From positions 563,248 through 627,247 of the forward strand of contig CAWCPZ010000011.1 in NCBI GenBank assembly GCA_963797635.1: a stretch of DNA of 64,000 bases, written 5' to 3'. The stretch is from an uncultured Actinomycetes bacterium. Lineage in GTDB: Bacteria > Actinomycetota > UBA4738 > HRBIN12. The translations under genes were made by a program, and so were the position numbers. Shown piece after piece: positions 11,810 to 35,231 of this stretch. Numbering within the stretch: the stretch's first letter is position 1; every line of letters starts with the position of its first letter. The notes beneath the pieces are model-generated. The model ran no database searches and was not told where the DNA came from. It was given only the letters and a program-made list of their open reading frames with translations.

Positions 11810-11844
11810 GTCGCGCCCGAGGCTAGCAGCATGCTCATCGAGGA

Positions 11845-12643
11845 CTATCCGACCGTGGATCCGCCGGCGAAGGTGGCTCCCACCTGACGCCAGTACCCGG
11901 CGATGGGTTCGATGGGTTCCAGCGACGCGAGTTCCTCATTGGGCGCGTCGTGGAGCGAGACCGTCACCTCGCCCGTCCAGACAGGGCCGAGGTCGACGTC
12001 GACCGAGCGCATCGTCACCAGTTCGTCGAGGCTGGCCGGCTGCGACGGGTCGATGTTGGGCATCCACCGCGAATGGAGCATGGGCAGGGCGTTGACGAAA
12101 CCGCCCGCTTCGGATCCCCCGGTCAGCGTCAGCGTGACGTCGGCGAGCCGCCGGTCGTTGGCGGCCAGCGTGGCGCCGAACACGCCGCCCGGCTCCAGCC
12201 GAGGGCCGGCGGCGCCCACCGTGACCGGACGCGTCATCCAGATCTGGCCCGAGCTTCTTCGGGTAGCCCTGATACCAGCCGCGGGCCAAGGCGAAGTCCT
12301 TGTCGACCCAGATGTAGACGCAGCGGGAGTAGGTCTCGCCCCCGTGGCTGCATCGCACCACCACGAAGCATTCCTTGTACTGCGAGCGCACGGGATCGAG
12401 CAGTTCCTCGCGCGAGTCACTGCACGATTGCCAGTCGGCCCAGATGATCGCCACCGCGCCGGGGTCCTCAGGGGCGAGGTCGACCCCATCTGGCAGGAGC
12501 GCGGCGACGTTCGCGGGATCGGTTCGATACTCGGCGGTCAGGACGTCCCCGGAGTAGTGCCATGGCGGCGGCGGCACGATGGACGCTCGCCCCTCGGGCG
12601 AGAACGGCAGCATGAACCCCGTCGGCTCCGTCACGCGGGTCAT
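11845..12643 (-). pseudogene. Acetoacetate decarboxylase (ADC) family protein, frame break near 12245-12255
   Basis: The N-terminal part starts at ATG 12643 (MTRVTEPTGFMLPFSPEGRASIVPPPPWHYSGDVL...ARGWYQGYPKKLG), in the frame of ORF 11936..13255. The C-terminal part (IWMTRPVTVGAAGPRLEPGG...AGYWRQVGATFAGGSTVG) is in ORF 11845..12489. One nt skipped joins them. Confidence 0.7.
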
Positions 12644-12682
12644 ACTACGCTTCGTTCCCGAACCATCTTCGAAGGGTTGGCG

Positions 12683-13528
12683 ATGGAGACCAGGCGCATC
12701 CTGCTCGACGGCGCACCGACGACGGTCGTGCGCGAGGACGACGAGTTGGTGGCCCCCGACGGACGCCGCATGCCCCTCGACGAGCCGGTGCACCTCCCTC
12801 CTGTGACGCCGACCAAGATCATCTGTGTCCACCTGAACTACGAGAGCCGGCGAGCCGAGTTCGGGGTCACCCTGGGGCCGGCCCCGACCTATTTCCACAA
12901 GCCGGTGTCCTCGCTCAATGCGCACGGCGGCGAGATCGTCCGGCCTCCTCGATGCCGCTACCTCAACTACGAAGGCGAGATCGGCATCGTGATCGGCCGG
13001 CGCTGCCGCCACATCGCCCCCGACGAGGCCGAGGACTACATCCGCGGGTTCACCATCGGGAACGACTACGGACTGCACGACTTCCGCGACACCGACGCCG
13101 GTTCGATGCTGCGCGTGAAGGGCTCGGACACGCTCTGTCCGCTCGGCCCGTCGCTGGTGGAAGGCTGGGACTTCCACGACAAGCGGATCCGCACGCTGGT
13201 CAACGGCGAGGTGGTGCAGGACGGGAACACCGACGAGATGATCTGGGACATGCACTACCTGGTCGCCGACATCGCGAGGACGATCACCTTGGAGCCCGGC
13301 GACGTGTTGCTGTCGGGCACGCCGGCGAACTCGCGACCGGTCCAGCCGGGCGACGTGGTCGAGGTCTCGGTGGACGGCCTCGGCACGCTGCGCAACACGA
13401 TCGTCGAAGGCACCGTGCCGATCCGCGAGGATGTCGGCGCCCAGCCCAGCGAGAGCGAAGAGGTCATCTCCACGACCTTCGGCGGCGACTGGGAGTTCCG
13501 CGGGATCCGCGCTCCGAGGAGGGACTGA
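12683..13528 (+). CDS. FAH family protein (HpaG-like isomerase/decarboxylase type)
   Basis: In-frame ATG 12683 of ORF 11903..13528. Sequence METRRILLDGAPTTVV...KIICVHLNYESRRAEFG...NYEGEIGIVIGRRC...PGDVLLSGTPANS. 281 aa. Confidence 0.85.
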   Translation: METRRILLDGAPTTVVREDDELVAPDGRRMPLDEPVHLPPVTPTKIICVHLNYESRRAEFGVTLGPAPTYFHKPVSSLNAHGGEIVRPPRCRYLNYEGEIGIVIGRRCRHIAPDEAEDYIRGFTIGNDYGLHDFRDTDAGSMLRVKGSDTLCPLGPSLVEGWDFHDKRIRTLVNGEVVQDGNTDEMIWDMHYLVADIARTITLEPGDVLLSGTPANSRPVQPGDVVEVSVDGLGTLRNTIVEGTVPIREDVGAQPSESEEVISTTFGGDWEFRGIRAPRRD

Positions 13529-13530
13529 CC

Positions 13531-13896
13531 ATGGCGACCGTTCGATACCTGGTGAACGAGGTGGAGGCCTCGATCCGCTTCTACGTCGACCTGCTGGGGT
13601 TCGAGGTGGCTGAGGACTACGCGCCCGCGATGGCCATCGTGCGGCGCGAGGACCTCACCCTGTGGCTCGCAGGGCCGCTCGCCTCGGCGGCCCGGCCCAT
13701 GCCCGACGGCGCGCAGCCGGTCCCGGGGAGTTGGAACCGGTTCGTCGTGACGACCGACGATCTCGACGCCCTGATCGAACGGCTGGCGGCGTCGGGGGCA
13801 CGGTTCCGCAACGAGGTCGTGACCGGCCCCGGAGGGCGACAGATCCTGGTCGAGGATCCATCGGGCAACGTGGTCGAGCTCTTCCAGCGGGCGTGA
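13531..13896 (+). CDS. VOC / glyoxalase family protein
   Basis: ATG 13531 inside ORF 12952..13896. MATVRYLVNEVEASIRFYVDLLGFEV...GGRQILVEDPSGNVVELFQ is a typical glyoxalase/bleomycin-resistance fold. 121 aa. Confidence 0.85.
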   Translation: MATVRYLVNEVEASIRFYVDLLGFEVAEDYAPAMAIVRREDLTLWLAGPLASAARPMPDGAQPVPGSWNRFVVTTDDLDALIERLAASGARFRNEVVTGPGGRQILVEDPSGNVVELFQRA

Positions 13897-19292: not shown

Positions 19293-20475
19293 TCACGAGC
19301 GAGCATCCCACCGGACCCAGAGGGAGTCCGGCGCTCGGAACTCCCAGCCGCTCAGCGTCACCGGCCGGTCGGGGTCGAGCCGGAGGCCGGGCAGCCCGTC
19401 GAGCAGCAGATCCAGCGACACCCTCGAGAGGTACCTGCCGAACCACGCCCCCAAACAGAAGTGGGTGCCGATCGCGAAGGCCAGGTGCGCGCCCTCCTTG
19501 CGATGCACGTCGAACCGATCGGGATCGGTCCAGCGACGAGGATCACGGTTCGCCGACGACAGGACGGCGCCCAGCAACGCCCCTTCGTCCAGCGGCACTC
19601 CCGGCGAGCTCGGTGGCGCCCGTGGTCTGGCGGGTCGACGTCCCCACCGGCCCGGCCCAGCGCAGGGTCTCCTCCACCGCGGCCTTGACCAGGGAACGGT
19701 CGCCCCGGACCTCCTCGAGCTGGTCCGGGTGCGTCCCCAGCGCCCACAGGGTCAACGCGATGACGTCCCGCGGTTCCTGCAAGCCGCCGGAGAGCATCAG
19801 CTTCGTGTTGGCGACGATCTGGTCCCGCGTCATGCGGCGACCGTCCTGCTCGTGGTGCAGCATCCACGACAGGACGCTGCCGTCGGGTTCGGCGTCCAGG
19901 CGATCCAGCACCTCGCCGATCGCCGCTCCGAGCGCGGCGCTGGCGTCATCGGCCGGCGCCTGCTTCGCCGGGTCACCCTCGAAGTTCGCCAGACCCGGCA
20001 TCAGCCCTTCGTTCCAGCGGAGGATGTCCTGCCAGGGCACGTCCTGCAGGCCCAGCATGAAACAGAGGCTCTGCACGCTCATCGGGTCGGCGTAGGCACG
20101 GAACAGGTCGGCCTCACCGTCGGCGGCGAACCCCTCGATCAGCTCCTGCGCCAACCGGGGGATCATGCCCCGCGTGCGTTCCTCGACGTCCCGAGGACGG
20201 AACGGCGTCTCGGTGATGGCCCGGAGCCACGCCTGCTCCGGACCCTCCATGCCCAGCATGTTCTCGCCCATCGTGCGATTCAGGGTCGACGGCGTGGTGG
20301 CGGCGGTGAACACCTCGGGTGCGAGGTCGACGTGGCGCACGTCGTCGTGCCGGGTGACGAGCCACAGCCCGACCGCCGGCACCCAGCTCACGGGTTCGTC
20401 CTCGCGGAGCGCGGCGTAGATCGGATAGGGGTCACGCTCGAGCGCCTCGAGCGTGATGGACTCCCCGATCGACAT
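19293..20475 (-). pseudogene. Cytochrome P450, frame break near 19598-19603
   Basis: The N-terminal part is in ORF 19543..20505. ATG 20475 is preferred because GGGGAG lies 6 nt upstream (sequence MSIGESITLEALERDPYPIY...). The I-helix-like segment is MLSGGLQEP and the EETLR motif is present. The C-terminal part is in ORF 19293..19598 and carries the heme loop FAIGTHFCLGAWF. Confidence 0.8.
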
Positions 20476-20528
20476 CGCCTGCTCCCCGGCCCGTCCGCTC
20501 CGCATCGCCCCGCGTTCGGCGACGGGGT

Positions 20529-20558: not shown

Positions 20559-20637
20559 ACCGCTGCCACTCGGGCTACGGTTCGGCGCGGAGCGCGGCTC
20601 GTCCGATGCACGACCGGAACCGCCGAGGGGGAAACGG

Positions 20638-21945
20638 ATGGACCTGAACGGCAAGCGCCTGCGGCTGTTGTATCCCGACATCCACGGGCTGGAGCGAGGC
20701 AAGTACCTGTTCGGCAAGGTGGCGGAATCGGGCCACGCGGCGTTCTGTGTCGGCGTCTATCCGCTCACGCACGATCGCGAGATCCTCATGGTGCCGAACA
20801 CGCAGTTCGACGTGGGGCTGCCCGACATCGATGTGGAGCTCGACCGCGAGTCGCTCCGTCCGAGCTGGGAACCCGAGACCGTGATCGGCATCGGCGACGT
20901 CCACTATCAAGGCGGTCCGGCGGTGCTGGACCCACGCCACGCCCTGCATCGAGCCGTCGAAGCCTGGCGATCGATGGGCCTGGAACCGCAGATCAGCTTC
21001 GAGCTCGAGTTCTACCTGATGGAGCCCGACGGCGGCGGCGGATGGCGGCCGGTCTCGCTGCCGGGCCATCGCGTCTACGGGACGGGCATGTCCGTCGACC
21101 CCACCGGCTGCGTCGAGGACATGGTCACGACCGCGCTGGCGTGCGGCTTCCCCGTGGAGAGCTGGAGCAGCGAGTACGACGAGTCCGCCTACGAGGTGAA
21201 CATCCGCTACAACGACGCGCTCCCCGCGGCCGATGACGCGTTCGTGTTCCGGTTGCTGATCCGCGAGATCGCCGAGCGCAACGGCAAGCTCGCGACGTTC
21301 CTGGGCCGGCCGCTCGCCGACCGCGGCGGCAGCGGGATGCACGTGAACTTCAGCTTCCGTCGTGAGGACGGCTCGAACGCGTTCCACGACCCCAACGATC
21401 CGGAAGGGCTCTCGACCCTGGCGCGGCAGTGCATCGCGGGGGTGCTCGAGCATCACGCCGGGATGGCGGCGCTCATGGCCCCGCACGTGAATGCCTACAA
21501 GCGGCTGCAGCCCGACATGTTGAACGGCTACTGGGGGAACTGGGGGCACGACGACCGCTCCGTGTCGGTCCGCGTGCCGCCGGCGCGTGGCGAAGGAACG
21601 CGCCTGGAGCAACGGACGGCCGACGCAGCCGCCAACCCGTACCTGGTGGGGGCGGCCGTGTTGCACGCGGCCCGCTTCGGCGTCGAGGACGAGATGGAGC
21701 TGAGGCCGCCACAGCCGGTCGGTGACGATCCCGACACCGACGTGCGGATCCCCGCGAACCTGGACGCGGCGCTGAAGGTCTTGAACGGCGACCAACGGCT
21801 GGTCGAGGCCATGGGCACGGAGCTGATCGAGGCGTTCACCATCCTCAAGCGGGGCGAATGGGAGCGCTACATGGGGGCGAACCAGGAGACCGACACGACC
21901 GAGGTCACCGATTGGGAGCTTCGGTACTACCTGCCGTACCACTAG
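20638..21945 (+). CDS. Glutamine synthetase family protein (GlnA-like; gamma-glutamyl-amine ligase type)
   Basis: In-frame ATG 20638 of ORF 19465..21945. 435 aa with SFELEFYLM, the SGMHVNFS motif, NAYKRL and RVP...RLEQRTADAAANPYL, typical of the GS catalytic domain. It lacks the length and regulatory loop of canonical GSI. Confidence 0.85.
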   Translation: MDLNGKRLRLLYPDIHGLERGKYLFGKVAESGHAAFCVGVYPLTHDREILMVPNTQFDVGLPDIDVELDRESLRPSWEPETVIGIGDVHYQGGPAVLDPRHALHRAVEAWRSMGLEPQISFELEFYLMEPDGGGGWRPVSLPGHRVYGTGMSVDPTGCVEDMVTTALACGFPVESWSSEYDESAYEVNIRYNDALPAADDAFVFRLLIREIAERNGKLATFLGRPLADRGGSGMHVNFSFRREDGSNAFHDPNDPEGLSTLARQCIAGVLEHHAGMAALMAPHVNAYKRLQPDMLNGYWGNWGHDDRSVSVRVPPARGEGTRLEQRTADAAANPYLVGAAVLHAARFGVEDEMELRPPQPVGDDPDTDVRIPANLDAALKVLNGDQRLVEAMGTELIEAFTILKRGEWERYMGANQETDTTEVTDWELRYYLPYH

Positions 21946-21966
21946 ATGGATGGCGGAGGGCGATCG

Positions 21967-22769
21967 ATGCGGCTCGAAGGCAAGGTGGCGATCGTCAGCG
22001 GTGGCGGTTCGGGGATCGGCGCCGCAACCGCTCGCAGGTTCGCCGACGAAGGGGCGAAGGTGGTCGTCACCGGGAGACGGCCGGAACCGTTGCTCGCGGT
22101 CGCGGACGAAACGGGGGGCCTGGCGTTCCCGGGCGATACCACCGACCCTGGCCATGCCGCACGCCGCGGTGATGGCCGCGTCCGAGGCCTTCGGAGGACT
22201 CGACATCGTGGTGGCCAACGCCGGAGTTGGGTTCGGGGGGACGGCGGCATCGGTCACCGATGAGGAATGGCTGCGCACCCTGGACGTGAACGTCACCGGA
22301 GCCATGCGCCTGGCTCGAGCCGCGATCCCGGCGATGGCCGATCGCGGCGGCGGCTCGATCGTGCTCGTGTCCTCGGTCTCCGGCGTCGTGTCGTCACCCT
22401 CGAGCGCCGCATACGTCACGTCGAAGGCCGCATTGATCGGGTTGGCCACGCGCGATCGCCGTCGATCACGCGCCGCAGGGGATCCGGTGCAACGCGCTGT
22501 GCCCGGGGTGGGTCCGAACGGCCATGGGCGATGCCGCCATGGAGGAACTCGCCACCGCCCGGGGCGTGGATCTGGACGCGGCCTACGCCATCGTGACCGG
22601 CCCGATCCCGATGCGGCGCGCCGCCAGCCCCCAGGAGATCGCGGCCTGTGCCGCGTTCCTGGCGAGCGACGATGCTTCCTACGTGACGGGAACCAGCCTG
22701 TTCGCCGACGGCGGCCTTCTCGCGGTCGACCCGGGTGGATTGGCGTTCGAAGGGATGGAAGCGCCGTGA
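21967..22769 (+). pseudogene. SDR family oxidoreductase, two frame breaks (near 22155-22160 and 22445-22450)
   Basis: Three consecutive frames: [37 protein letters not shown] (ORF 21946..22263), then [21 protein letters not shown]...SSAAYVTSKAALIGLA (ORF 21950..22825), then RAIAVDHAPQGIRCNALCPGWVRT...YVTGTSLFADGG (frame of ORF 22524..22769). Contains TGxxxGxG, NAG and YxxxK. An alternative ATG lies at 21946. Confidence 0.8.
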
Positions 22770-22801
22770 CCGTCTCGGCCGACTTGGGGCCTCCAGACGG
22801 G

Positions 22802-22831
22802 TTGCCCGTGAAGGTCGTTCGGTAGCAAAAT
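22802..22831 (+). promoter_or_regulatory. Candidate promoter of the P450 gene at 22881..24147 (TTGCCC-N18-CAAAAT, with TCGTTCGG in the spacer)
   Basis: An AT-rich CAAAATAC is preceded at a fixed distance by TCGTTCGG, duplicating the element at 20527..20545 (opposite strand). It lies about 45 nt upstream of the start codon. Confidence 0.35.
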
Positions 22832-22880
22832 ACTTTCGCTGCGCGTGCGCGTCGAGAAGCTGACGGGAGTCGACCCATGA

Positions 22881-24147
22881 GTGAAGTGTCAGGGACTGTC
22901 TCGAAGGGCGCTCGGCGACATCGACCTGGTGAACCCCGACAACTACGTCGATGGCGTGCCGTTGGAGTGGTTCGACCGGCTTCGCGACCGACCATCCCGT
23001 GATCTGGCACCCCGAGCCGTCGCCGAACCACGGCTTCTGGGCGGTCACGCGCTACGACGACCTCACCGCGATCCACATGGACTGGGAGACCTTCTCGTCC
23101 GAGACCGGCGCGGTCTCGCTCGAGGAGCTCGACGCCGAACAGCTCGAGATCCGCAAGTCGATGCTCGAGACCGACCCCCCGCGCCACACCGAGCTGCGCA
23201 AGATCTGCTCGAAGCGGTTCAGCGCCCGCGGCGTGGGCAAGTACGAGGACTGGATCCGCGAGGTGGCCAGCGACGTGCTCGACCAGGCCCTGCCGAAGGG
23301 CGAGTTCGACTTCGTCAGCGAGATCAGCCGCGATCTGCCGATCCGGTTCCTGTGCTCGATCTTCACGGTGCCGCAGGAGGATGCGCCGAAGCTGATCGGG
23401 TGGGGCGACAACATGATCGCCAACCAGGACCCCGACCTGTCGGCCGCCGTCGTGGACAAGGTCGACACCGAGGCCTACCGCCTGTTGCCGTTCCGCTCCC
23501 CCACCGCGCTCGACGTGTTCGCCTACGCCGACGCGCAGCGGGACCTGCGCGTCGCCGAACCCGCCGACGACGTGCTGCAGGCCCTCACGATCGCCCAGTC
23601 CGAAGGCGTGCTCAACGAGCAGGAGTTCCACAACTACTTCGGGGTGCTGATGATCGCCGGCAACGAGACCACGCGGCACACGATCAGCCACGGCATGCTG
23701 GCGCTGATGCAGCATCCCGAGCAGCTCCAACTGCTCCGCGACCAGCCGGAGCTGATCCCGAACGCCACCGAGGAGATCCTGCGGTGGGCGACGCCCGTGC
23801 TGCACTTCCGGCGCACGGCCACGCGCGACGTCGAGCTGCGCGGCCAGCAGATCAAGGCCGGGGACAAGGTGGTGACCTGGTACATCAGCGCGAACCGCGA
23901 CCCCGAGATGTTCGCCGATCCCTACACGTTCGACGTGACGCGCACGCCGAACGACCACGTGACGTTCGGGCCGGGCGGACCGCACTTCTGCCTGGGGGCG
24001 CACCTCGCGCGCCTCGAGACGAAGATCCTGTTCCAGGAGTTGATCCCGCGCCTCGACACGATCGAGCTGACCGGGCCGGTCGAGCGCATCCGCTCGAACT
24101 TCGTGAACGGCATCAAGCGGATGCCGGTGCGCGTCACCACGCGCTAG
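22881..24147 (+). pseudogene. Cytochrome P450, frame break near 22997-23001; start unresolved (GTG 22881, or ATG 22877 in a third frame)
   Basis: The N-terminal part (ALGDIDLVNPDNYVDGVPLEWFDRLRD) is in ORF 22881..24281. The rest (DHPVIWHPEP...AGNETTRH...EEILRW...FGPGGPHFCLGAHLA) is in ORF 22951..24147. GGGAG lies 7 nt before ATG 22877. Confidence 0.8.
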
Positions 24148-24160
24148 CCCGACGCCCCCC

Positions 24161-25102
24161 ATGCTGCCCCCGCGCCTGGTGCTGGTGCTCAGCGAGAACC
24201 ACACGCTGGTGCCACCACGTGACTTGCGAGGCCTGGTCGAGGTCGCCGTCGAAGCCGAACGAGCCGGGTTCGACGGGGTGATGGTGAGCGAGCACATCGT
24301 CCTGGGTCGGGGCGCCGATGCCGACGGAGTGCCCGCGAATCCCAGGGACTACGCGCTTCCGGGCAATCAGGACCCGGCCACACCGTGGCCGTCATCGCTC
24401 CTGCTGCTGGCAGCGGTCGCATCGGCGACGACGAGGCTGCGGCTGATCGCGAGCGCCGTGATCCCTCCCCTGCGCCACCCGCTGCTGATCGCGAAGGACC
24501 TCGCCACACTCGACCTGTTGTAGTGAAGGCCGGCTCGTGGTGCAGCCCACGGTGAGCTGGCACCGCGCCGAATACGACGCCTTGGGCGTCCCCTTCGAGA
24601 CCGGGGCCGGCGTCTCGATGAGCACCTCGATGGCGTGGGCGGCGCTGTGGCGAGGTTCGCCGGCGACCTTCGAAGGTGAGTACTACGCGTTCGATGACGT
24701 CTGGCTCGAGCCGAAGCCGTTCCGTGCCGACCGGGCCGAGGCTGTGGTTCGGCGGTCAACGGCTGCACGACCGGCTCCTGCAACGTCTCGTCACGTTCGG
24801 TCACGGATTCAACCCGCTGGGACGACCGAGCGATGAGGAACTCGAGCGGCTCGCGGCGGCGATGGCCGATGCCGGCCGCGATGCGGCCGACCTCGAGATG
24901 GTCGGCGGCACGCGCGGTTCGTTCCCCGACGCGGACAGCCCGGCGCCGCTGGGCGCTGCCCTCGATCAGATCCCGGATCAGGTGGCGCGAGGGTTCGGCA
25001 CGATCTGCATCAAGCCCGGACAGTTCACCGACGACCGGGCCGAGATCCCGGGATCTGCTGCAGCGCATCGTCGACGGTACGGCCGCCAGGACCTCTGCCT
25101 AG
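24161..25102 (+). pseudogene. Luciferase-like (LLM class) flavin/F420-dependent oxidoreductase, three frame breaks (near 24520, 24730, 25048)
   Basis: Four consecutive frames: ORF 24161..24523 (GFDGVMVSEHIVLG...LRHPLLIAKDLATLDLL), ORF 24537..24836 (SEGRLVVQPTVSWHRAEYDALGVPF...), ORF 24676..25740 (GPRLWFGGQRLHDRLLQRLVTFGHGFNPLG...ICIKPGQFTDD) and ORF 24833..25102 (RDLLQRIVDGTAARTSA-stop). Confidence 0.75.
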
Positions 25103-25117
25103 TCTGGTTCAGACTAG
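25099..25117. terminator. Perfect palindrome CTAGTCTG-GTT-CAGACTAG between convergent genes; the stop codon of the + strand gene lies inside the stem
   Basis: Seen directly. TAG 25100-25102 ends the LLM gene. The MarR gene's stop also lies inside the palindrome (its 3' end is placed at 25109). A near-identical copy lies at 54396..54412. Confidence 0.45.
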
Positions 25118-25649
25118 TGGCGGCCGTCGGCGGCGTCGGCCGTCGGGCACGGCTCGCAGCAGCGAACGGAGCATGGCGGCCAGGCTGTCCTGCTGGTCGC
25201 GGACAGGTGCGCGCGACCGCCGACTCCTCGGCGTTGAACTTGGGGAACAGTCCCTCGATCGTCGTCCGGCCCGACGGCGTCAGCTCGACGATCACCATGC
25301 GACCGTCCTTCGCGTCCTTGCGCCGGGTGACGAAGCCACGCGATTCGAGGGTCGTCATCACGCCGGTCGCCGTCGGGCGGCTGATCCCCACCGCCGCCGC
25401 GAAGTCCCGCGCCTCCATCTCGCCCCACACCCACAGCACCCACAGGCCGACGAACGAGGTCCAGCTGAGGCGGTCGGCGGCCAGCACCTTCGCTTCCATG
25501 TGCCGGCGGATCGCGGTCGAGCTGCGGAACAGGTTCGAGACCGCCCACATCGCGCGGAAGTCCAGCGGCAGGTGGCCGAGCTCCTCGACGATCTTGCGTT
25601 CGGCGGGCAGGAGGCCGTCGGCGCCGATGCGGTTCGGGCGATCGCTCAT
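25109..25649 (-). pseudogene. MarR family transcriptional regulator (HpaR-like by context), frame break near 25195-25215
   Basis: ORF 24978..25649 gives MSDRPNRIG...DRLSWTSFVGLWVLWVWGEMEARDFAAAVGISRPTATGVMTTLESRGFVTRRKDAKDGRMVIVELTPSG. The expected C-terminal helix (RDQQDSLAAMLRSLLRAV) appears only after skipping one nt. ATG 25649 overlaps the upstream stop (ATGA). Confidence 0.75.
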
Positions 25650-27079
25650 GCCGCGCTCCCCGTGCGAGCGAGGCGCTCGCCGAGCTCACGCGCGACGTCG
25701 AGCAGGGCCAGCACGTCGTCCTCGGTGGTGCGGAAGTTGACGAAGCACGGCCGCAGCCACACCTCGCCGTCGATCAGGGCCGACGACAGGTAGACGCGGC
25801 CATCGGCCTGGATCGCGTCGGCGAGCGCCTGGTTGTGCGCGTCGAGGTCGGCGACGCCCGGCGGGCACGTGGCGGATCGGCACGATCGACAGTTGCGGGG
25901 GCGCCTCCATGACCTCGAAGTCCTCGGTCGTCTGCGCGTGGCGGTACAACAGGTCCGCCTCGGCCAGGTTGCGTTCGATCGCGTCGCGGAACTGCGCCGC
26001 GCCGTGCGCCCGGAACGCCAGCCACATCTTCAGGGCGCGGAACGGCCGCGAGTACTCCAGCGTGATGTCGACGGCGTGCAGCTCGTGCTGCTGGTGCGGC
26101 AGGTAGCCCTGTTCGTGCGCGAACGCGGCGGCGAGGGCATCGTCGTCCCTCACCAGGACGACGCCGCAGGCCTTCGGCAGGTACAGCCACTTGTGAGCGT
26201 CGACCGAGCACGAGTCGGCCCGCGAGAAGCCCGCGAACCCCGCCGCGCGCGACTCGGTGGCCGCCGCCGGCAGACCGTAGGCGCCGTCGACGTGGAGCCA
26301 CACGCCACGCGCCTCACACACGTCGGCGATCTCCTCGAGCGGGTCGATCGCGCCCGTGAGCGTGGTGCCGGCCGTCGCGATCACCGCCATCGGGCGTGAT
26401 GCCCGCCGCGATGTCGGCATCGATCGCCTCGGCGAGGGCGTCGGGCCGCATCCGGCGGAGCCCGTCGAGGTCGACCGCGCGCAGGTTGTCCGAGCCCATC
26501 CCCAGCAGCTCGACCGCCCGCATCACGGAGTAGTGGACCTCCTTCGAGCAGTAGACGGCGACGCGCCGCCCGCCGAGCCCGGTGTGGCGGGATCCCGGCA
26601 TCGCGCGTTCGCGGGCGGCCGCCAGCGCGCTCACGTTGCTGATCGTGCCGCCGCTCGTGAACGCGCCACCCGTGGCCGGGAACCCGATGAACTCCGCGAC
26701 CCAGCGAACGGCCTGATCCTCGACCTGCGTCGCCGCGCGGGCATCGACCGCCAGGTTGATGTCGTAGGTGTGGGCCAGGAAGTCGGCGAGGGCACCGATC
26801 TCGAGGCCGCTCGAGCCGATGAACGCGAAGTAGCGAGGCCTCGCCTGCGCGATCGACTCGTCGAGGATGCGCGCGGCGTCATCGAGCGCCTCGTGCGACC
26901 GGGCTCGGACCCGAAGGCAGGCCCGCTTCGAGGAGCCGCCGCACGCGATCGTCCAGCGGCGGCTCCTCGGGCCGGAACCGGTCGAAGCTGCGCCAGGCCT
27001 CGGTGACCAGCCGGACCGCGTGCTCGAGCGCCTCTTCGCGAGGCGCATCGAGCCGCAGCGGCCGGTCGGGTTGCGTCAT
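25646..27079 (-). pseudogene. Pyridoxal-dependent (group II) amino-acid decarboxylase, three frame breaks (near 26896, 26398, 25862)
   Basis: Four consecutive frames: ORF 26879..27079 (MTQPDRPLRLDAPREEALEHAV...), ORF 26314..27048 (SHEALDDAARILDESI...TSGGTISNVSALAAARE...), ORF 25686..26420 (MAVIATAGTTLTGAIDPLEEIADVC...SVDAHKWLYLPKACG, the PLP-lysine motif), then a tail PGVADLDAHNQALADAIQADGRVYLSSALIDGEVWLRPCFVNFRTT. Confidence 0.8.
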
Positions 27080-28591
27080 AGCGCAGATGGTACGCAGAAC
27101 TCAGGAAGCCCCGACATCCTCCGAATGGAGGTCACCGAGCACCTCGCTCGCGGGCGCCCGCCGCCCATCACCATCGTGACGATCGCTCCGATCACCGAGC
27201 CAGACCGAGCGCGAACCAGGGTGCCAGGACCGTCGGGCTGGTCTGCTTGTAGAACGACGCCGAAGATCGCCGCCGCCGGTGAGCGCGATACCGACGATCG
27301 AGGCGATGTACACCCCAGCCATGCTGCCGTGGTCTGACGAGCCCGCGGAACGCCCCGACCGACATCAGCAGGTAGACGACGACGAGCGCGAACCCGCCGA
27401 AGGTCGAGGCCCAGACGAAGATCGAGAAGTAGTGCGGGAGCTCCGGGAGGGCGAACAGGTCTTCCCAGAACTCGTTCAGCGGCGATGAACCCGGCCATGA
27501 CGACGATCATCAGCACGATCGCACCGATCGGCGTGCCGTACTTCTTCGACACGGAGGCCAGGCCGCCGGGAAGCCGACGGTCGCGAGCCATCGCGAAGAC
27601 GCCGCGGGTCGAGGCGGTCGCCGCACCCACGCCGACCGCGAGGATGTCGAGGAACACGACGATCACGAGGAGGTCGAGGATGAACGTCGATCCGTACCCC
27701 CCGGCGGCCTCGGGCGAGCCGAGCGCGAACAGCGGCGGCGGCAGCCGCGGCGAAGATGTTGTCCACGTTGAACCCGAAGCCCGCCACCTGCGCGTACGAC
27801 GCGATCAGGTAGAAGAGCGACACGACCACGACGGACGTCGAGCACGGCCTTGGGGATCGCTCGCTTCGGCTCCTGCGTTTCCTCCGCGAGGTTCGCCGCG
27901 GTCTCGAACCCGACGAAGATCAACACGCCGTAGAGCACCCCGAAGAAGATGCCCGGACCAGCCCGACGTCGAGGAGTTCGGGTTGAACGCCGTTGCCACA
28001 TCGTTGTCGCCGCCGACGTCGATGATCACCTTGATGAAGAAGGCCAGCACGACCGCCGCCGAGACCAGCGCCAGCGTCAATTGCACCCGGGTCGAGATCT
28101 GCACGCCGAAGTAGAGCACCACGAACACCAGCAGCGCGAAGAACGCGCTCCACGCCCAGATCGGCAGCGGAGACTCCGCGCTGAACACGCCGGGGACCGC
28201 AGGGTCGGACGTGAAGATCGAGTCGTGGATGTACCCGCCGATCAGCACGCCGAGGCCGGCCGTGAGCACCATGGTGCCGCTGTAGTACAGCCACCCGGCA
28301 GCGGCGCCCGACGTTGTTGCCCAGTCCGGCCGACACGTAGTCGTACAGCGAACCGGCGGCGTGGATCTTCTTCGCGTACTGCGCCACGATCCACCCGAGC
28401 GCGAACACGCCGATCGCCGCGATCAACACCGACAGCGGCGCGGCAACTCCCGCGCCCTTGGCGGCCACGTTCGCTCCCACGATCAGCGGGATGAGGAACG
28501 CGGCGGAGAACACCGGTCCCATGAAGCCGACGGACTGGGCGATCACGTCGACGAGCGAGAGCTTCGCCTCGCCGAGCCGTTCGTAGCCCAT
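27076..28591 (-). pseudogene. APC family amino-acid permease with at least 8 frame breaks
   Basis: ATG 28591 (MGYERLGEAKLSLVDVIAQSVGFMGPVFSAAF...). The protein is spread over ORFs 27920..28726, 27805..28272, 27663..28001, 27476..27829, 27076..27666, 27101..27322 and unlisted short frames. The frame steps by one nt each time, near 28290, 27975, 27840, 27735, 27480, 27335, 27275, 27255 and possibly 27215. The C-terminal end is not resolved. Confidence 0.75.
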
Positions 28592-28670
28592 GTCCTGTGA
28601 CTGACCTGGTTGGTCTGCCACTGGAGCCTCCCTTCCTGTTCGGTTCCCCCCGTCCGACCGGTCGCCGCAG

Positions 28671-29570
28671 CTAGGCCGCGGTCCCCTCGCCGGTCCAACC
28701 GTCCGCGGGCCGCTCGAACCAGACATGCACCTGGCCCGTTCCCACGGAAGCTTCGTACTCGCTGTAGGGCTCCCCCGGCGCCTGGCAACGCGCGCCGCCG
28801 ATCGCCGAGGCCATCATCAGGTAGTGGCCGAAGTGCCCCTCCGGCGCCGCCTTCCGGTACTCCGGCATCCAGTCGATGATCCCCGCGTGGTCGCCGTCCT
28901 TCATCATCGCGAGCACGCGCTGGTCGGCCTCGTAGCTCTCGCGATGCAGGATGTTGTCGGGCGCCTTCGAGCTCTCGTGCTGCCGGAGTTCCTGGAACGA
29001 GAAGAACCGGTGGGTCATGCCACCGCTCGCGAGCAGCACCACGCGCCGGTCGCTCTCGCGGATCGCGTTGCCGATCAGCTCGCCGAACAGCAGGAAGTCC
29101 TCGGTGGTGCAGCACTGGTTGATCGCCACGCTCATCCACCGCGTGTCGGCGTCGCCCAGGAACGTCCACACGTTCACGGTGCCGTAGAAGATCGGCAGGA
29201 ACGGATCGTCGCAGGGCAGGATCCAGCAGTCGTCGCGCCCTTCGGCCTGCGCCGCGATCGCGTTCGCGAGCTCGGGGTCGCCGGGCATGTCGTAGGGCAC
29301 CTGCTTCATGCCGCGCGGCAGTTCATGGCTCGTGAACTTGCCGGTCCGGCGTTCGGCCGAGGTCACGATGTGTTCGAAGGTCGACTCCCAGTGCGTGTCG
29401 AACACGATCACGGTGTCCGGGTTCAGCCGGTCGAGCGCCTCGGACTTCAGTCGATGCAGGCCGGGCACCAACGAGATCTCGTTGCCGTCGTTGAGTTCGC
29501 GCCGCGTGTCCTCCGGCAGCATGATCGTGGGAACGTGCGCGACCAGTGCCGCGCCGACGATCTCACCCAT
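28671..29570 (-). CDS. hpaD: Class III (LigB-type) extradiol dioxygenase, homoprotocatechuate 2,3-dioxygenase (HpcB/HpaD)-like
   Basis: ORF 28671..29570 (299 aa). MGEIVGAALVAHVPTIML, DTVIVFDTHW, LASGGMTHRF and SVGTGQVHVWF match, from memory, the corresponding blocks of E. coli HpcB (MGKLALAAKITHVPSMYL, DTIIVFDTHW, LASGSLSHRF, SSGTGQVNAVF). Confidence 0.8.
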   Translation of the reverse strand: MGEIVGAALVAHVPTIMLPEDTRRELNDGNEISLVPGLHRLKSEALDRLNPDTVIVFDTHWESTFEHIVTSAERRTGKFTSHELPRGMKQVPYDMPGDPELANAIAAQAEGRDDCWILPCDDPFLPIFYGTVNVWTFLGDADTRWMSVAINQCCTTEDFLLFGELIGNAIRESDRRVVLLASGGMTHRFFSFQELRQHESSKAPDNILHRESYEADQRVLAMMKDGDHAGIIDWMPEYRKAAPEGHFGHYLMMASAIGGARCQAPGEPYSEYEASVGTGQVHVWFERPADGWTGEGTAA

Positions 29571-29588
29571 GTGCGTCTCTCCCCTCCA

Positions 29589-31128
29589 TCAGGTGGTCCA
29601 CGGTGCCGTGCAGACGTTCTTCACATCGCTGTAGAAATCGAAGCTCCACGTGCCGCCCTCTCGGCCGATCCCGGAGTTGCGCGAGCCGCCGAACGGGGCC
29701 GCCAGGTCGCGCACGAAGAAGCAGTTGACCCACACGGTGCCGGCCACGAGCGCCGCGCTCACGCGTTCGGCGCGGCCCGGATCGCCCGTGTACAGGATCG
29801 CGGCCAGGCCGTACCGCGTGTCGTTCGCCAGCGCCACGGCTTCGTCCTCGTCGGCGAACGTCTGCAGGGTGAGGACCGGGCCGAAGACCTCCTGCGTCAG
29901 GATCTCGGAGCCGGCCGGCGCATCGGTGAACAGCGTGGGTCGGTAGTACAGGCCCCCGAGCTCGTCGTTGGGTCCACCGCCGAAGACCGCACGGGCACCG
30001 TCGGCCTTGGCGCGTTGGACGAATCCGTCGACGCGCTCGAAGTGTTCGCGGGTGATCTGCGGGCCGATCTCGGTGGCCGCTTCTCGTGGGTCGCCTTGCA
30101 CGATCTCGGCGGCGGCCCGGGTGAACCGGTCCAGGAACTCGTCGTGGATCGACGCCTCCACGAGCAGCCGCGTGCCGGCCAGGCAGACCTGACCGGCGTT
30201 GTCGAACTGGTTGACCGCCTGCTTCACGACCGCGTCGAGATCGGCGTCGGCGAAGGCGACGAACGGTGACTTGCCCCCGAGCTCCAGGCTCGCCGGGGTG
30301 AGGTTCGCGCCGGCGGCCTGCGCCACGAGCTTGCCGGTCGGCACCGATCCGGTGAACGCGATGCGATCCAGGCCGGGATGGGCGGTGAGGGCGGCGCCCG
30401 CCTCCTCGCCGATCCCCTGCAGCACGTTGAACGCGCCGTCGGGCAGGCCGGCATCGTGCGCGATGTCGGCGAGCATCGAGGCGGTGAGCGGCGCCCACTC
30501 CGGCGGCTTGAGGATCACGGCGTTGCCGGCCGCCAGCGCCGGAGCCACGCGCCAGGTGGCGAGCATCAACGGAGCGTTCCACGGCGTGATCACGGCCGTG
30601 ACGCCGCTGGGGTCCCACTCGAAATGCTCGGCGAACCCGTCGTGGTCCTTGTCGTCACCCAGCGTCAGCAGGTGGTCGGCGAAGAACCGGAAGTTCCGCG
30701 CGACACGCGGCATGACGGAGTTCCGCATCGACCGGAGCAGCGACCCGTTGTCCCGCGTCTCGACCGCCGCGAGTTCGGGGACGCGCGCCTCGACGCCATC
30801 GGCGATCCGGTGCAGGACCTCCGCTCGCTCCTTCGGCGGGCATCGAGCCCCAGACGGCGAACCCCTCACGAGCGGCGGCGACGGCCTGGTCGGCTTCGGG
30901 GGCTCCCCCGCGGGCGACCTCGGCGATGGGCATCTCGTCGATCGGCGAGACGTCGACGAAGGTCTCGGCCGACGCGACGCGCGTGCCGCCGATCCAGTGG
31001 TCGGTGGAGACCTCGATGCCCTCGACGACGGCGTGCCCCGTGGCGACCCTCTCCTCGCGTCGTGGGACGCGGTGCGTCCCAAGGTCGTTCGGACACGAAC
31101 GGTATGGCCGGTGCCAAGCCGCTGTCAA
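29589..31128 (-). pseudogene. NAD-dependent aldehyde dehydrogenase (HpaE-like by context), frame break near 30830-30838; start unresolved
   Basis: The body is in ORF 29589..31082 (ITPWNAPLMLATWRVAPALAAGNAVILKPPEW, ELGGKSP, VCLAGTR, EEVFGPV). The N-terminal part (VSTDHWIGGTRVASAETFVDVSPIDEMPIAEVARGG...FAVWGSMPA) is in ORF 30655..31128. The only conventional start upstream is TTG 31128. A strong GAGGAGAGGG near 31050 has no ATG/GTG/TTG after it. Confidence 0.8.
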
Positions 31129-32702: not shown

Positions 32703-35231
32703 CTACGAGGAGAAGTGCGCCGTCAGGTCCGGCGTGGCGCGCAGGCGAAGGGCGGCCGCTATCCGCTGGCGCTCCAGCATCTGCTGCAGGGTCTTGGCCG
32801 ACTGCGGGATCGGGTGGCGTTCGAAGAAGGCAGCGGCCGCGGCCACGTCCTCGGGCCGGGAGAGGAACCGCACGCCGTCGACCATGCGGATCGTGAGTGA
32901 GGACGGGAAGCGCGAGACGAGATCGTCCCAGTGTTCCGTGAGGAAGGTCCAGGAGCGCGGTCCCAGGTCGCGGTTCGTGCCGGCGAACGCCACCACGAAG
33001 GGGGCGTTCTGGGAGCGGATGTCGTCGCCGAGCGTCGCGGCGAGCGTGCGATCCATCAGCGCCGGGTCGCGGAAGAGCGGCAGCGCGATCAGGTAGCGCA
33101 GCTGCTCCTGCGGCGTGGGCGCATCGCGATAGGCCTCCCAGAAGCGCTCGTAGTCGTCGGCATCGCCGGCCACCGCCACGACGTTGACCGCGGCCGCCGC
33201 CAGCGCGGGATCGACGGGCTTGCCGGCACGGGCCTCGCCTTCGAATTCACGCGCGGCGGCTTCAGCGTTGGGATCGGCGCCCAGCACACCGAGACCCTGC
33301 AGGAGCGCTCCGCGCAGCGCGCGCGTGAGATCGGCGTCCTCTTCCCGAGCCTCCCAGCCGAGGCGATCCATGGCGGGGGCCACCAAGCCACGGACGAACC
33401 CGCGGAACCGCTCACGGGCCTCGCCTTCCACGAAGCGGTCGCACCAGCCGAGGCCGGCCATCAACGCCTGCCACACGGCCAGATCGTCTTCATCCTGGAA
33501 CCCCGCCGCGAACCGGACGAACGCCGATGCATCGGCGGCTCCGGAACTCACGGCGGCCCAGTGGTCGTCGACCAGCCCGTACCGTTCGAGGGGCGAGACC
33601 TCGGACAAGCGCCCGGTGAGGCGGTCCAGGAGATCTCCGTCGTAGCGCACGCGGACGAAGCTGCTCGCGCCCGCGTTCGCCACCATGGCGGCGTCAGGAT
33701 CTGCCGGCGAGCTGACGCCCCCCGCGGGAACCAGCACGGAGCGCTCCTCGCCGCCGAGCTCGCGCACCCGCAGCGGCACGTCCCAGGTGGTGACGTCATC
33801 GGCTCCATCGGCCAGGAACCGACGCTGAGCGATCCGGACGCCCTCATCGTCGGGCGAGACGGTCAGGAGCGGGTAGCCGCCCTGCCAGATCCACTGGTCC
33901 ATGATCCGGCGGACGGGTTCGCCGCTGGCCTCCTCGAGCGCGTTCCACAGGTCGTGGGTCTCGGTGTTGCCGTAGGCGTGACGCTGCAGGTACAGGCGGA
34001 TGCCGTCACGGAACTCGTCGCCCCCGAGGTAGCGGTCGAGCATGCGCAGGGTGGCCGCGCCCTTCTGGTAGGTGAGCACGTCGAACATGCCGGCGGTGTC
34101 ATCGGGCGAATGGACGGGGTACTCGATCGCGCGCGTGGCGTGCAACGCGTCGACCTCCTTCGCGGAGGTGCACGCGCGGGCGAACGAGGACCAGCGCTCC
34201 CAGTCGGGCCGCCACGCATCGACCGTCACCAGCGCCATGAAGGTGGCGAACGCCTCGTTCAGCCAGATGCCGTTCCACCACCGCATCGTCACGAGGTTGC
34301 CGAACCACTGGTGGGCCAGCTCGTGGGCGACGACGTCGGCGATGTTCTCGAGTTCGGGTTGCGTCGCCTGCTCCGGGTCGACCAACAGCAGCGACTCGCG
34401 GTAGGTGATGCAGCCGGTGTTCTCCATCGCGCCCTGCGCGAAGTCGGGCAACGCGATCATGTCGACCTTGCGATCGGGATACGGGAGGCCGTAGTAGTCG
34501 GTGAAGAACCACATGGAGAAGACGGCGGCATCCAGCGCGAACTTCGTCAGATGGCCCTTGCCAGGAACGTAGACGACCCGGATCGGCACGCCGTCGGCAT
34601 CGACGGGGTCGCTGCACTCGAGCCGGCCCACCACGAACGCCACCAGGTAGGTGGACATGCTCATGGTCTCGGCGAATCGGACGCGGATCCGGTCATTGCC
34701 CAGATCCTCGCGCTCCACCTCGGGACCGTTGGAGATGGCGGCGAGACCGTCGGGGACGATCAGGGTGATGGCGAACACGGCCTTGAGGTCGGGTTCGTCC
34801 CAGCACGGGAAGGCGCGCCGGGCATCGGCCGCCTCGAACTGCGTGGTGGCGATCGTGTGGATGTCGCCGTCGTCGTCTGCGTAGGTGGAACGGTAGAAGC
34901 CGTGGAGTTGATCGTTGAGCTCGCCGCGGAACGCCAGGTACAGCGTCCAGGAGCCTGGATCGGCGGGATCGGCAAGGCCGAGCGTGGCGCGCTGCAGCTC
35001 CTCGTCGAAGGCGATGCCGCTCACTTCGATCCGGGTTCCGGCGGCGTTGGAGAGCCACCCGTTGTCGATCTCGAGGGCCAGGGCGTTGATGACGATCTCG
35101 TCGATGCGCTCGTGGACCTCGACGGTCACGGCTTCGGTTCCCGAGAAGGTGGCGGCCTCCAGATCGGGTTCGATCGTGAGGTCGTAGCGCGAGGGGATCA
35201 CGCTTCGCGGGAGACGGTAGCGGTCCTGCAT
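32703..35231 (-). CDS. pepN: Aminopeptidase N (M1 family)
   Basis: ORF 32703..35231 (842 aa). Contains GAMEN and HELAHQWFGNLVTMRWWNGIWLNEAF (HEXXH-18-E). Confidence 0.95.
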   Translation of the reverse strand: MQDRYRLPRSVIPSRYDLTIEPDLEAATFSGTEAVTVEVHERIDEIVINALALEIDNGWLSNAAGTRIEVSGIAFDEELQRATLGLADPADPGSWTLYLAFRGELNDQLHGFYRSTYADDDGDIHTIATTQFEAADARRAFPCWDEPDLKAVFAITLIVPDGLAAISNGPEVEREDLGNDRIRVRFAETMSMSTYLVAFVVGRLECSDPVDADGVPIRVVYVPGKGHLTKFALDAAVFSMWFFTDYYGLPYPDRKVDMIALPDFAQGAMENTGCITYRESLLLVDPEQATQPELENIADVVAHELAHQWFGNLVTMRWWNGIWLNEAFATFMALVTVDAWRPDWERWSSFARACTSAKEVDALHATRAIEYPVHSPDDTAGMFDVLTYQKGAATLRMLDRYLGGDEFRDGIRLYLQRHAYGNTETHDLWNALEEASGEPVRRIMDQWIWQGGYPLLTVSPDDEGVRIAQRRFLADGADDVTTWDVPLRVRELGGEERSVLVPAGGVSSPADPDAAMVANAGASSFVRVRYDGDLLDRLTGRLSEVSPLERYGLVDDHWAAVSSGAADASAFVRFAAGFQDEDDLAVWQALMAGLGWCDRFVEGEARERFRGFVRGLVAPAMDRLGWEAREEDADLTRALRGALLQGLGVLGADPNAEAAAREFEGEARAGKPVDPALAAAAVNVVAVAGDADDYERFWEAYRDAPTPQEQLRYLIALPLFRDPALMDRTLAATLGDDIRSQNAPFVVAFAGTNRDLGPRSWTFLTEHWDDLVSRFPSSLTIRMVDGVRFLSRPEDVAAAAAFFERHPIPQSAKTLQQMLERQRIAAALRLRATPDLTAHFSS

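Follow-up and report, generated by a model that had tools for sequence, protein, structure and literature searches.

The DNA analysed here, referred to as the window, spans 64,000 nucleotides (nt) of contig C11 in the 3.0-Mb, 13-contig genome of an uncultured Actinomycetes bacterium (assembly GCA_963797635.1; completeness 92.7%) and has a G+C content of ~69%. From position 31128 down to 25109, its minus strand carries five co-directional genes encoding an aldehyde dehydrogenase (ALDH), a LigB-type dioxygenase, an APC-family permease, a pyridoxal phosphate (PLP)-dependent decarboxylase and a MarR-family regulator. The same families, order and strand had been proposed in an earlier reading of the letters alone (the sequence-only reading), which also suggested that the genes lead from an aromatic amino acid or amine to homoprotocatechuate (HPC), and comparison with Pfam and NCBIfam models bore out all five assignments. 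Together with conserved neighbouring genes, the operon may encode a route in which the amine is glutamylated before the ring is opened. The features of the operon are, in the direction of transcription:

31086..31128, minus strand: promoter and operator of the operon, from sequence reading and a footprint of 16 loci
29589..31056, minus strand: NAD(P)-dependent ALDH, HpaE-like (PF00171, 465 bits)
28671..29570, minus strand: LigB-type (class III) extradiol dioxygenase, HpaD-like, 299 amino acids (aa), intact (PF02900)
27101..28591, minus strand: APC-family amino-acid permease, 493 aa in relatives (PF00324/PF13520)
25646..27079, minus strand: group II PLP-dependent amino-acid decarboxylase, 476 aa in relatives (PF00282)
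25109..25649, minus strand: HpaR-like repressor of the MarR family, final gene of the operon (PF01047)

As assembled, the dioxygenase is the only one of the five with an open frame; the ALDH lies in two frames, the decarboxylase in four and the permease in many, and the C-terminus of MarR is lost. The ALDH is split by one single-base insertion near 30837-30840, and the extra base is absent from contigs of two soil runs. Among 43 ALDH models, HpaE (TIGR02299) is the best match of the intact orthologue at L015:10021-11508, with 512.2 bits below a cut-off of 638.35, and phenylacetaldehyde dehydrogenase models gave 384-388 bits. The dioxygenase has the LigB fold (PF02900, 94.5 bits, residues 7-285), and its score against HpaD_Fe (TIGR02298), the best family, is 148.6 bits below a cut-off of 315.95 (119.8 bits for the orthologue in genome L060). 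Its alignment with the solved 3,4-dihydroxyphenylacetate 2,3-dioxygenase 8IQ8 (E 1.5e-23) spans the entire protein, and it retains the HVP, FD(T/S)HW, SG..(T/S)HRF and EG motifs, whose His and Glu residues are assigned ligand roles from knowledge of the LigB family. The next solved relative is the beta subunit of a 2-aminophenol dioxygenase, at 48 bits.

The permease is interrupted by ~10 single-base insertions and one deletion, mapped against seven relatives and against L068, a contig from an independent metagenome of the Joint Genome Institute (JGI). Its intact orthologue matches TIGR00909 over residues 45-369, with BcaP as second-best match, and the 493-aa permease of L068 bears both PF13520 and PF00324. 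The decarboxylase contains three single-base insertions (near 26896, 26391 and 25860), and PF00282 matches both of its halves. Read through the four frame pieces, it is 98.5% identical to P0122, the intact 476-aa protein of L068, and DAHKW (with the PLP lysine), HVDGAY and H-x-S are invariant in the alignment. Its scores against solved structures are nearly flat, running from the decarboxylase-domain protein 4OBU (201 bits) through DOPA decarboxylase 7XIN (178), a desferrioxamine decarboxylase (174) and CSAD (168) to plant tyrosine decarboxylase (TyDC, 158), and for this reason the sequence does not decide between an aromatic and a non-aromatic clade. The best NCBIfam models are those for diaminobutyrate (182 bits, cut-off 900) and then aspartate decarboxylase (162 bits), and the Enterococcus-type tyrosine decarboxylase model TIGR03811 gave 47 bits with a cut-off of 905. 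The label 'aromatic-L-amino-acid decarboxylase' stems solely from automatic annotation at JGI, and matches in a protein atlas were only to generic 'PLP-dependent decarboxylase' clusters. An identity as an aromatic acetaldehyde synthase, which would lack the tyrosine of the catalytic loop, was considered as well; the loop has no tyrosine, but neither do the two best solved decarboxylase relatives at this position of the alignment, and the idea was dropped. Finally, MarR has two single-base deletions, near 25213 and 25199, and its intact orthologue scored 50.5 bits against HpaR (TIGR02337), below the cut-off of 121.2. When the two deletions are read through, the C-terminus and the stop codon TGA (25109-25111) are recovered in a third frame, and the end point of 25109 given in the sequence-only reading is its last base.

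Promoter, operator and transcription unit

The five genes are separated by gaps of 18, ~79 and 21 nt and one 4-nt overlap. The overlap, an ATGA at 25646-25649 combining the decarboxylase stop and the MarR start, had been recognised from the letters and is the same in L068. A further ATGA, at 27076-27079, had been taken for an overlap of permease and decarboxylase; it appeared so because of an out-of-frame piece of open reading frame (ORF), and the permease in fact stops at the TGA at 27101-27103, 21 nt ahead of the decarboxylase ATG.

Upstream of the ALDH, a -35 hexamer TTGACA at 31123-31128 is followed by a TANNNT-type, -10-like TACCGT at 31099-31104, and a palindrome, CGTTCG-N4-CGAACG, at 31086-31101 overlaps the -10. 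The TTG at 31128, with which the longest ALDH ORF opens, is part of this -35 hexamer and not a start codon. When the sequences ahead of the ALDH gene were aligned for 16 loci, representing many genera of the family, CTTGACA, a spacer of ~18 nt and CATACCGTTCG-N4-CGAACGAC proved invariant; the flanks were unalignable, and the 4 nt separating the palindrome arms vary freely. It is this phylogenetic footprinting from which the promoter was derived, a promoter scan having found no sigma-70 match. The 6-4-6 palindrome occurs in four copies in the 3-Mb genome. The TTGACA/CATACC promoter context was not found in the examined flanks of the three other copies, and a genome search did not find the palindrome upstream of the glutamine synthetase (GS)-like or cytochrome P450 genes described below. 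A terminator scan gave four weak terminator-like sites, which lie within coding sequence and are not above chance, and about a tenth of the sequence words looked for are present in two metatranscriptome runs.

The short gaps, the 4-nt overlap and the invariance of promoter and palindrome in 16 loci argue for one regulated operon, and as judged from these features the five genes are one transcription unit under a single promoter. The conserved palindromic operator overlaps the promoter of the very operon that encodes MarR, the pattern of an autoregulated system, and coincides with the region at 31085-31105 that had been proposed for MarR binding. In line with this conserved operator, the HpaR-like MarR probably represses the operon by binding to the palindrome over the -10, and an intermediate of the aromatic pathway probably releases it.

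The start of the ALDH shows a further peculiarity. In most loci of the family, the stretch from the promoter to the conserved N-terminal residues AVVEGIEV of the ALDH (window 31030-31060) is without a canonical start codon; two loci have an ATG in this region, and an ACG two codons on is widely conserved.

Conservation of the operon and its neighbours

Conservation of the gene order, which the sequence-only reading had suggested checking, extends to 23 of 24 genomes of the same genus and to most genera of the family, and the arrangement is far beyond chance. Of 401 genomes sampled from the phylum, 37 contained the dioxygenase (19 of the 22 belonging to the window's family, 17 from other families). 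In 16 genomes from other families of the same order, it was not found. Comparison of two genome lists from the 401-genome sample placed P450 orthologues (at least 47% identity) in ~34 of the 36 other dioxygenase-positive genomes; such orthologues are also present in families without the LigB dioxygenase. In distant families, the dioxygenase stands beside orthologues of the ALDH, an FAH-family enzyme, an acetoacetate decarboxylase (ADC)-family enzyme, the GS-like ligase and the P450, and in the clean 9.2-Mb genome L060 the cluster additionally includes a ferredoxin and a ferredoxin reductase. Both this genome and that of L069 (complete, 3.0 Mb) have the look of isolates. In general, the GS-like ligase, the P450, the HpaG-like FAH and the ADC-family enzyme travel with the operon genes across several actinobacterial orders.

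Family f19 is without the LigB enzyme and has one tightly packed 10-gene operon with the order FAH, GATase1/C26, GS-like ligase, P450, VOC dioxygenase, ADC, ALDH, M20 deacylase, APC permease and decarboxylase. The ALDH of f19 is 54% and the decarboxylase 55-57% identical to those of the window, and its two-domain VOC extradiol dioxygenase has the VOC-type HpaD, TIGR02295, as best curated match. The permease of the window's family is only ~26% identical to that of the f19 operon, which indicates that the transporter has been exchanged. A survey anchored on the decarboxylase covered 39 loci of at least 14.5 kb with an orthologue of at least 48% identity, the carriers being Gaiellales, Solirubrobacterales, Nanopelagicales and metagenome-assembled genomes (MAGs) of Actinomycetes. 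At least three pathway partners accompany the decarboxylase in 24 of these loci, 20 carry an extradiol dioxygenase (LigB type in 13, VOC type in seven, both in none), and GATase1-type genes lie within the clusters of 15 loci, as they do in the f19 operon. Among more distant decarboxylase homologues, only one of 13 loci had any partner, and this difference upholds the view that the decarboxylase and permease belong with the ring-cleavage genes. As the LigB- and VOC-type enzymes, whose folds are unrelated, fill the same slot and each is nearest to the HPC enzyme of its own superfamily, HPC-like ring cleavage appears integral to the cluster. The replacement of LigB by VOC in otherwise orthologous clusters is also a clean natural example of non-orthologous displacement.

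Two kinds of deviating loci were seen. In one genus, L052 (G319:C1:1470000-1489999) has the ALDH, dioxygenase and permease followed directly by a luciferase-like gene, without decarboxylase and MarR and with its P450 ~0.9 Mb from the cluster, a natural variant from which the contribution of the decarboxylase might be learned. The cultured Conexibacter sp. DBS9H8, Sphaerimonospora cavernae and Actinoallomurus soli (L110, L111 and L114) have decarboxylase orthologues of 54-57% identity with zero pathway partners within 10 kb.

The pathway had been called incomplete at this locus in the sequence-only reading. However, the conserved partners (GS-like ligase, P450, F420-type luciferase-like monooxygenase (LLM), FAH and ADC) are in the same window, placed on the other strand (the ADC gene, as listed, on the minus strand). 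The neighbouring features are:

11851..12661, minus strand: ADC-family protein, frame-broken (PF06314)
12662..13509, plus strand: FAH-family enzyme, HpaG-like (PF01557)
20638..21942, plus strand: GS-like ligase, candidate gamma-glutamyl-amine synthetase (PF00120, 281 bits)
21946-22761, plus strand: short-chain dehydrogenase/reductase (SDR), frame-broken, after the GS-like ligase
22906..24147, plus strand: cytochrome P450 of the CYP125/CYP124 kind, one break near 22974 (PF00067)
24145..25102, plus strand: luciferase-like oxidoreductase, frame-broken twice, convergent with the operon (PF00296 on two pieces)
25099..25117, no strand: perfect palindrome with 8-bp arms and a 3-nt loop, at the convergent junction of MarR and the luciferase-like gene

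The GS-like ligase has gamma-glutamylputrescine synthetase as best NCBIfam match (229 bits, cut-off 650) and is below the cut-offs for GlnA (199 versus 429) and type III GS (209 versus 470), that is, a GS-family ligase and not a true glutamine synthetase. In the Protein Data Bank (PDB), the P450 matches CYP125MRCA (422 bits) and CYP125 (268 bits). The luciferase-like gene shares 62-73% identity with its orthologues in distant clusters, of which the one in L071 is an F420-dependent LLM (TIGR03619, 178.6 bits, exceeding the cut-off of 166.9). The best named match of the FAH, ranking behind a generic FAH-family model, is the C-terminal part of HpaG (199 bits, below the cut-off of 276), and the gene is the best match in the genome of the FAH of L069, a locus of f19, at 49% identity. 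Likewise, the ADC gene is the best genome match of the ADC genes of L069 and L071 (45-56% identity). The L069 copy scored 268 bits against PDB entry 4ZBO and 191 bits against MppR, which are ADC-fold enzymes with aldol and dehydration chemistry on pyruvate-derived 2-oxo acids.

Further features of the neighbourhood lie outside the proposed gene set. MarR and the luciferase-like gene both have their stop codons within the palindrome at 25099-25117, which may be a bidirectional terminator; no T run follows it, and it went uncalled in the terminator scan. Directly after the HpaG-like FAH gene is a frame-broken VOC/glyoxalase-family gene (13510-14337), which is not an orthologue of the f19 VOC dioxygenase (zero tblastn matches at 1e-10). 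A second P450, frame-broken, lies on the minus strand at 19293-20505 and is transcribed away from the GS-like gene. It shares only 28-36% identity with the pathway P450 and does not belong to the gene set found conserved in several families. At 9654-11824, gltX (glutamyl-tRNA synthetase) is followed by an Rv2993c-like FAH-family gene, a pairing known from mycobacteria, which lies 1 kb from the pathway FAH and is unrelated to it; its FAH gene (11054-11824) was rejected as a pathway orthologue, being Rv2993c-like and beside gltX.

Frame breaks in the assembled genes

Alignment with seven same-genus loci identified ~17 indels specific to the window, each of one base apart from one of two bases, with one in the ALDH, ~11 in the permease, three in the decarboxylase, two in MarR and none in the dioxygenase. 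Contig L068 is 94.9% identical to the window across 5.2 kb and has intact genes for the LigB dioxygenase (299 aa), the permease (493 aa) and the decarboxylase (476 aa). Relative to L068, the window has 13 one-base insertions and one one-base deletion, all confined to permease and decarboxylase, and substitutions amount to ~3-5% in each gene. With the indels projected out, the permease shows 58 synonymous and 16 nonsynonymous codon changes (96.8% protein identity) and the decarboxylase 66 and 6, respectively, with zero stops in either gene, from which it follows that selection acted throughout the divergence of the window and L068. The extra bases at 26391, 27197, 27204, 27257, 27480 and 30837 are absent from contigs of four soil and sediment studies, and in the same contigs the missing base is present.

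Frame breaks were also sought across the genome with a codon-usage Viterbi scan, which gave ~3.4 frame-switch candidates per 10 kb, strongly clumped. The five-gene cluster, with 11 candidates in 6.2 kb, reaches the 99th percentile, a density matched by about a dozen other patches; the maximum is 18, and the densest patches are at C11:189000, C7:177000, C3:118000 and C11:684000-691000. The plus-strand neighbours of the operon are likewise frame-broken, and in few-contig sister genomes (long-contig 'MFD' MAGs, presumably nanopore assemblies) the breaks are scattered and hit different genes of the same cluster. The long minus-strand flanking ORFs at 20575-24297 and 32703-35231 were considered as intact genes that would prove the errors local, an argument that was dropped because the former is an antisense ORF over frame-broken plus-strand genes.

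Were the frameshifts real, the permease, decarboxylase, MarR and ALDH would be recent pseudogenes in this organism, with the dioxygenase alone surviving. Seventeen frame-breaking indels in 6 kb against none in the dioxygenase, at a density reaching the 99th percentile of the genome, would suit such decay. Yet, projecting the indels out leaves neither a nonsynonymous excess nor stop codons, and 13 of the 14 indels relative to L068 are insertions, mostly away from homopolymers, which is the opposite of the deletion bias usual in bacterial gene decay. In addition, breaks are scattered over different genes of the whole genome and of several few-contig sister assemblies, and near-identical DNA of four studies is free of the indels. 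The pattern of relaxed selection expected of a pseudogene cluster (nonsynonymous excess, stops and breaks common to relatives) was thus not observed, and real decay is very improbable. The frame breaks are almost certainly consensus errors of an error-prone assembly, the genes being intact in nature. Given the clumped single-base errors of this MAG, its frame-broken genes are not to be read as pseudogenes, and apparent pseudogenes anywhere in this assembly need comparison with other assemblies.

A proposed pathway and its alternatives

Based on the gene families and their conserved context, the operon and its neighbours are proposed, with a probability of about 0.58, to form a route in which an aromatic amino acid is decarboxylated, the amine gamma-glutamylated and then oxidised by the P450, and the ring opened by HPC-like meta-cleavage. 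The permease would import the amino acid, most likely tyrosine or DOPA, from which the decarboxylase would form the amine. The GS-like ligase would couple this amine to the gamma-carboxyl of glutamate, in the manner of PuuA, IpuC and the ligases acting on aniline or naphthylamine, and the glutamylated amine would be oxidised by the P450. The HpaD-like dioxygenase would then open the ring of a 4-substituted catechol and the HpaE-like ALDH would oxidise the ring-fission semialdehyde, leaving the HpaG-like FAH and the ADC-family enzyme (likely a hydratase or aldolase) to complete the meta-cleavage route. Established meta-cleavage chemistry would lead one to expect a ring-fission aldehyde where an ALDH is present but a hydrolase for the meta-cleavage product is not, and this combination points to a 4-substituted catechol as substrate. 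The operon is not a textbook hpa operon, but its chemistry is predicted to be homoprotocatechuate-like.

Two variants of the P450 step may be envisaged. In the first, ring hydroxylation would give a glutamyl-catecholamine that is cleaved with its nitrogen still protected, the glutamyl group preventing cyclisation between the ring-fission aldehyde and a free amine, and the resulting gamma-glutamyl-4-aminobutyrate-type product would be split by an amidohydrolase. This variant would explain both the amidohydrolases (GATase1, M20 and HDAC-type) in many clusters and the off-model Hpa-like enzymes. In the second, the P450 would hydroxylate the carbon beside the amide nitrogen, giving an arylacetaldehyde and glutamine, and the ALDH would then yield homoprotocatechuate as the true ring-cleavage substrate, which suits a CYP125-like C-H hydroxylase and DOPA as the starting compound. 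The first, glutamyl-retaining variant is slightly favoured. It could further be speculated, though this is less likely than not, that in abundant uncultured soil Actinomycetota, Gaiellales, Solirubrobacterales and freshwater Nanopelagicales an amine derived from tyrosine or DOPA stays N-gamma-glutamylated through ring opening by either the LigB or the VOC enzyme, ending as pyruvate and a gamma-glutamyl-4-aminobutyrate-type product that merges with Puu-type chemistry, with glutamyl serving as a protecting group.

The proposed route shares parts with several known systems. As in Escherichia coli hpaGEDFHI with HpaR, a LigB dioxygenase is found beside a semialdehyde dehydrogenase, an HpaG-like FAH and MarR-family control, and an Hpa member is the best curated family match of each protein. 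However, the scores here are below the equivalog cut-offs, neither an HpaF isomerase nor an HpaBC hydroxylase was found, an ADC-family protein takes the place of HpaH/HpaI (the sole HpcH/HpaI aldolase of the genome is far off, on contig C3), the PLP decarboxylase and permease are inside the operon, and the GS-like ligase and P450 are conserved partners. Of the hpa-type route suggested in the sequence-only reading, the homoprotocatechuate-like chemistry is retained on account of the best matches to HpaD, HpaE, HpaR and HpaG, whereas membership among hpa operons is not, all four being below cut-off. In the aniline and 1-naphthylamine systems (AtdA1-A5, TdnQTA1A2B and NpaA1-A5), a GS-like ligase glutamylates the aromatic amine before oxygenation (PMC11335346, PMC4539516). 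They resemble the present cluster in having a GATase1-type hydrolase alongside (here in the clusters of relatives) and extradiol cleavage followed by a semialdehyde dehydrogenase. They differ in using a Rieske dioxygenase instead of a P450, an arylamine instead of the alkylamine proposed here to arise from an amino acid in the cell, and a catechol-2,3-dioxygenase-like instead of a homoprotocatechuate-like dioxygenase.

The Ipu pathway of Pseudomonas sp. KIE171 reportedly employs a GS-like ligase and a P450-type hydroxylase that acts on the gamma-glutamyl amide of isopropylamine. It is said to have in common with the present cluster this pairing as well as a permease, aldehyde dehydrogenases and an amide hydrolase, and to differ in its aliphatic substrate and in being without ring cleavage and decarboxylase. 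Polyamines are gamma-glutamylated by Puu in E. coli and by GlnA2 and GlnA3 in Streptomyces coelicolor (PMC8998196, PMC5403932). The ligase of the window is nearest to the gamma-glutamylputrescine synthetase of the Puu type, the logic of ALDH and C26/GATase1 hydrolase is common to both, and the predicted end product of the glutamyl-retaining variant would be a Puu intermediate. However, Puu has no P450, dioxygenase, FAH or ADC, and its ligase belongs to the equivalog from which the 229 bits obtained here (cut-off 650) fall short. Finally, the group II decarboxylase beside an APC-family transporter recalls lactic acid bacteria, in which a tyrosine decarboxylase (TyrDC) and a tyrosine/tyramine antiporter export the amine for proton-motive force. 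Here, the pair instead sits among catabolic genes, and the decarboxylase has the low TIGR03811 score given above (47 bits, cut-off 905).

Several findings weigh against the proposed route. About a third of the decarboxylase orthologues are outside any such cluster, and the genomes compared are related and so not independent samples. The decarboxylase is about equidistant from aromatic, acidic and diamine decarboxylases, and each Hpa-like protein scored below its equivalog cut-off, for which reason the substrate can be called only 'HPC-like'. The P450 is nearest to CYP125/CYP124 terminal C-H hydroxylases, not to known phenol ortho-hydroxylases, which fits N-dealkylation or an aliphatic substrate better than ring hydroxylation. 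Moreover, the GS-like and P450 genes are on the opposite strand, under different control and without the operator, and a gamma-glutamyl hydrolase was not found in the window, the nearest and best Peptidase_C26 gene being on contig C4.

Other pathways can be drawn from the same genes. In a classical route, an amine oxidase or transaminase encoded elsewhere would form the aldehyde, which would pass through 4-hydroxyphenylacetate (4-HPA) to homoprotocatechuate and on to HpaD and HpaE, the GS-like and P450 genes being unrelated neighbours. The best family matches to HpaD, HpaE and HpaR agree with this, as do the ALDH scores of 384-388 bits against phenylacetaldehyde dehydrogenase models and the flavin amine-oxidase-family genes elsewhere in the genome. 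However, these flavin oxidase genes are all away from the cluster, and the 92.7%-complete genome yielded no copper amine oxidase, no HpaB above cut-off (an HpaB_N partial match of 25 bits only) and no 5-carboxymethyl-2-hydroxymuconate (CHM) isomerase (PF02962), which speaks against the amine oxidation and 4-HPA hydroxylation assumed in the sequence-only reading. All Hpa scores under their cut-offs count against it too, and the classical route would leave unexplained why the GS-like ligase and P450 accompany the dioxygenase, ALDH and decarboxylase in several orders, in f19 within one operon; it is accordingly regarded as improbable. No more credible is a promoter shared by two modules, in which the decarboxylase and permease would exchange amino acid and amine for pH or energy, like TyrDC-TyrP or GadB-GadC, next to a separate aromatic pathway of dioxygenase and ALDH. 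Pairs of a decarboxylase and an APC transporter are a textbook antiport design to which the two genes conform, the transporter has been exchanged (the ~26% identity to the f19 permease), and L052 keeps the ALDH, dioxygenase and permease without decarboxylase or MarR. Yet, the decarboxylase is linked to pathway genes across lineages that differ in permease and dioxygenase type and is the last catabolic gene of the f19 operon, and the regulator is HpaR-like, not of an acid-stress type.

A non-aromatic substrate is perhaps a little less improbable, but still unlikely. Here, a diamine or branched-chain amine would be glutamylated, receive a hydroxyl group at a terminal carbon from the CYP125-like P450 and then be oxidised by the ALDH in an Ipu- or Puu-type pathway, with the dioxygenase in another role. 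This would accord with diaminobutyrate (182 bits) and aspartate (162 bits) as best NCBIfam models of the decarboxylase, with the CYP125/CYP124-like P450, with a GS-like enzyme nearest to gamma-glutamylputrescine synthetase and with BcaP as second-best match of the permease. However, an extradiol dioxygenase of one or the other superfamily is integral to the cluster, the two types being mutually exclusive and both nearest to homoprotocatechuate dioxygenases, HpaG-like FAH and ADC-family enzymes adjoin it, and among solved structures the decarboxylase is closest to 4OBU and a DOPA decarboxylase. The glutamylation route for aromatic amino acids is preferred to these alternatives.

The gene families, their conserved linkage, the operator and the intactness of the genes in close relatives were established by computation. 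What the window adds is a family-specific layout, with the decarboxylase and permease inside a dioxygenase/ALDH operon under HpaR-like control, together with the conserved operator, the count of LigB/VOC displacement and the recognition of the frame breaks as artefacts. A literature search found no description of the gene set or of gamma-glutamyl-tyramine or gamma-glutamyl-dopamine catabolism, and gamma-glutamyltyramine occurred in the searched literature only in methanofuran and methylofuran biosynthesis. All parts belong to known families, and their combination appears to match no pathway described in the literature searched. If the proposed route is true, it would give bacteria a third means, next to amine oxidases and transaminases, of using aromatic biogenic amines and tyrosine or DOPA, and it would explain how a ring-fission aldehyde and an amine group can coexist. 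It would also give a function to a gene set of very abundant uncultured actinobacteria of soils and lakes, and would bear on the turnover of carbon and nitrogen from plant and animal residues.

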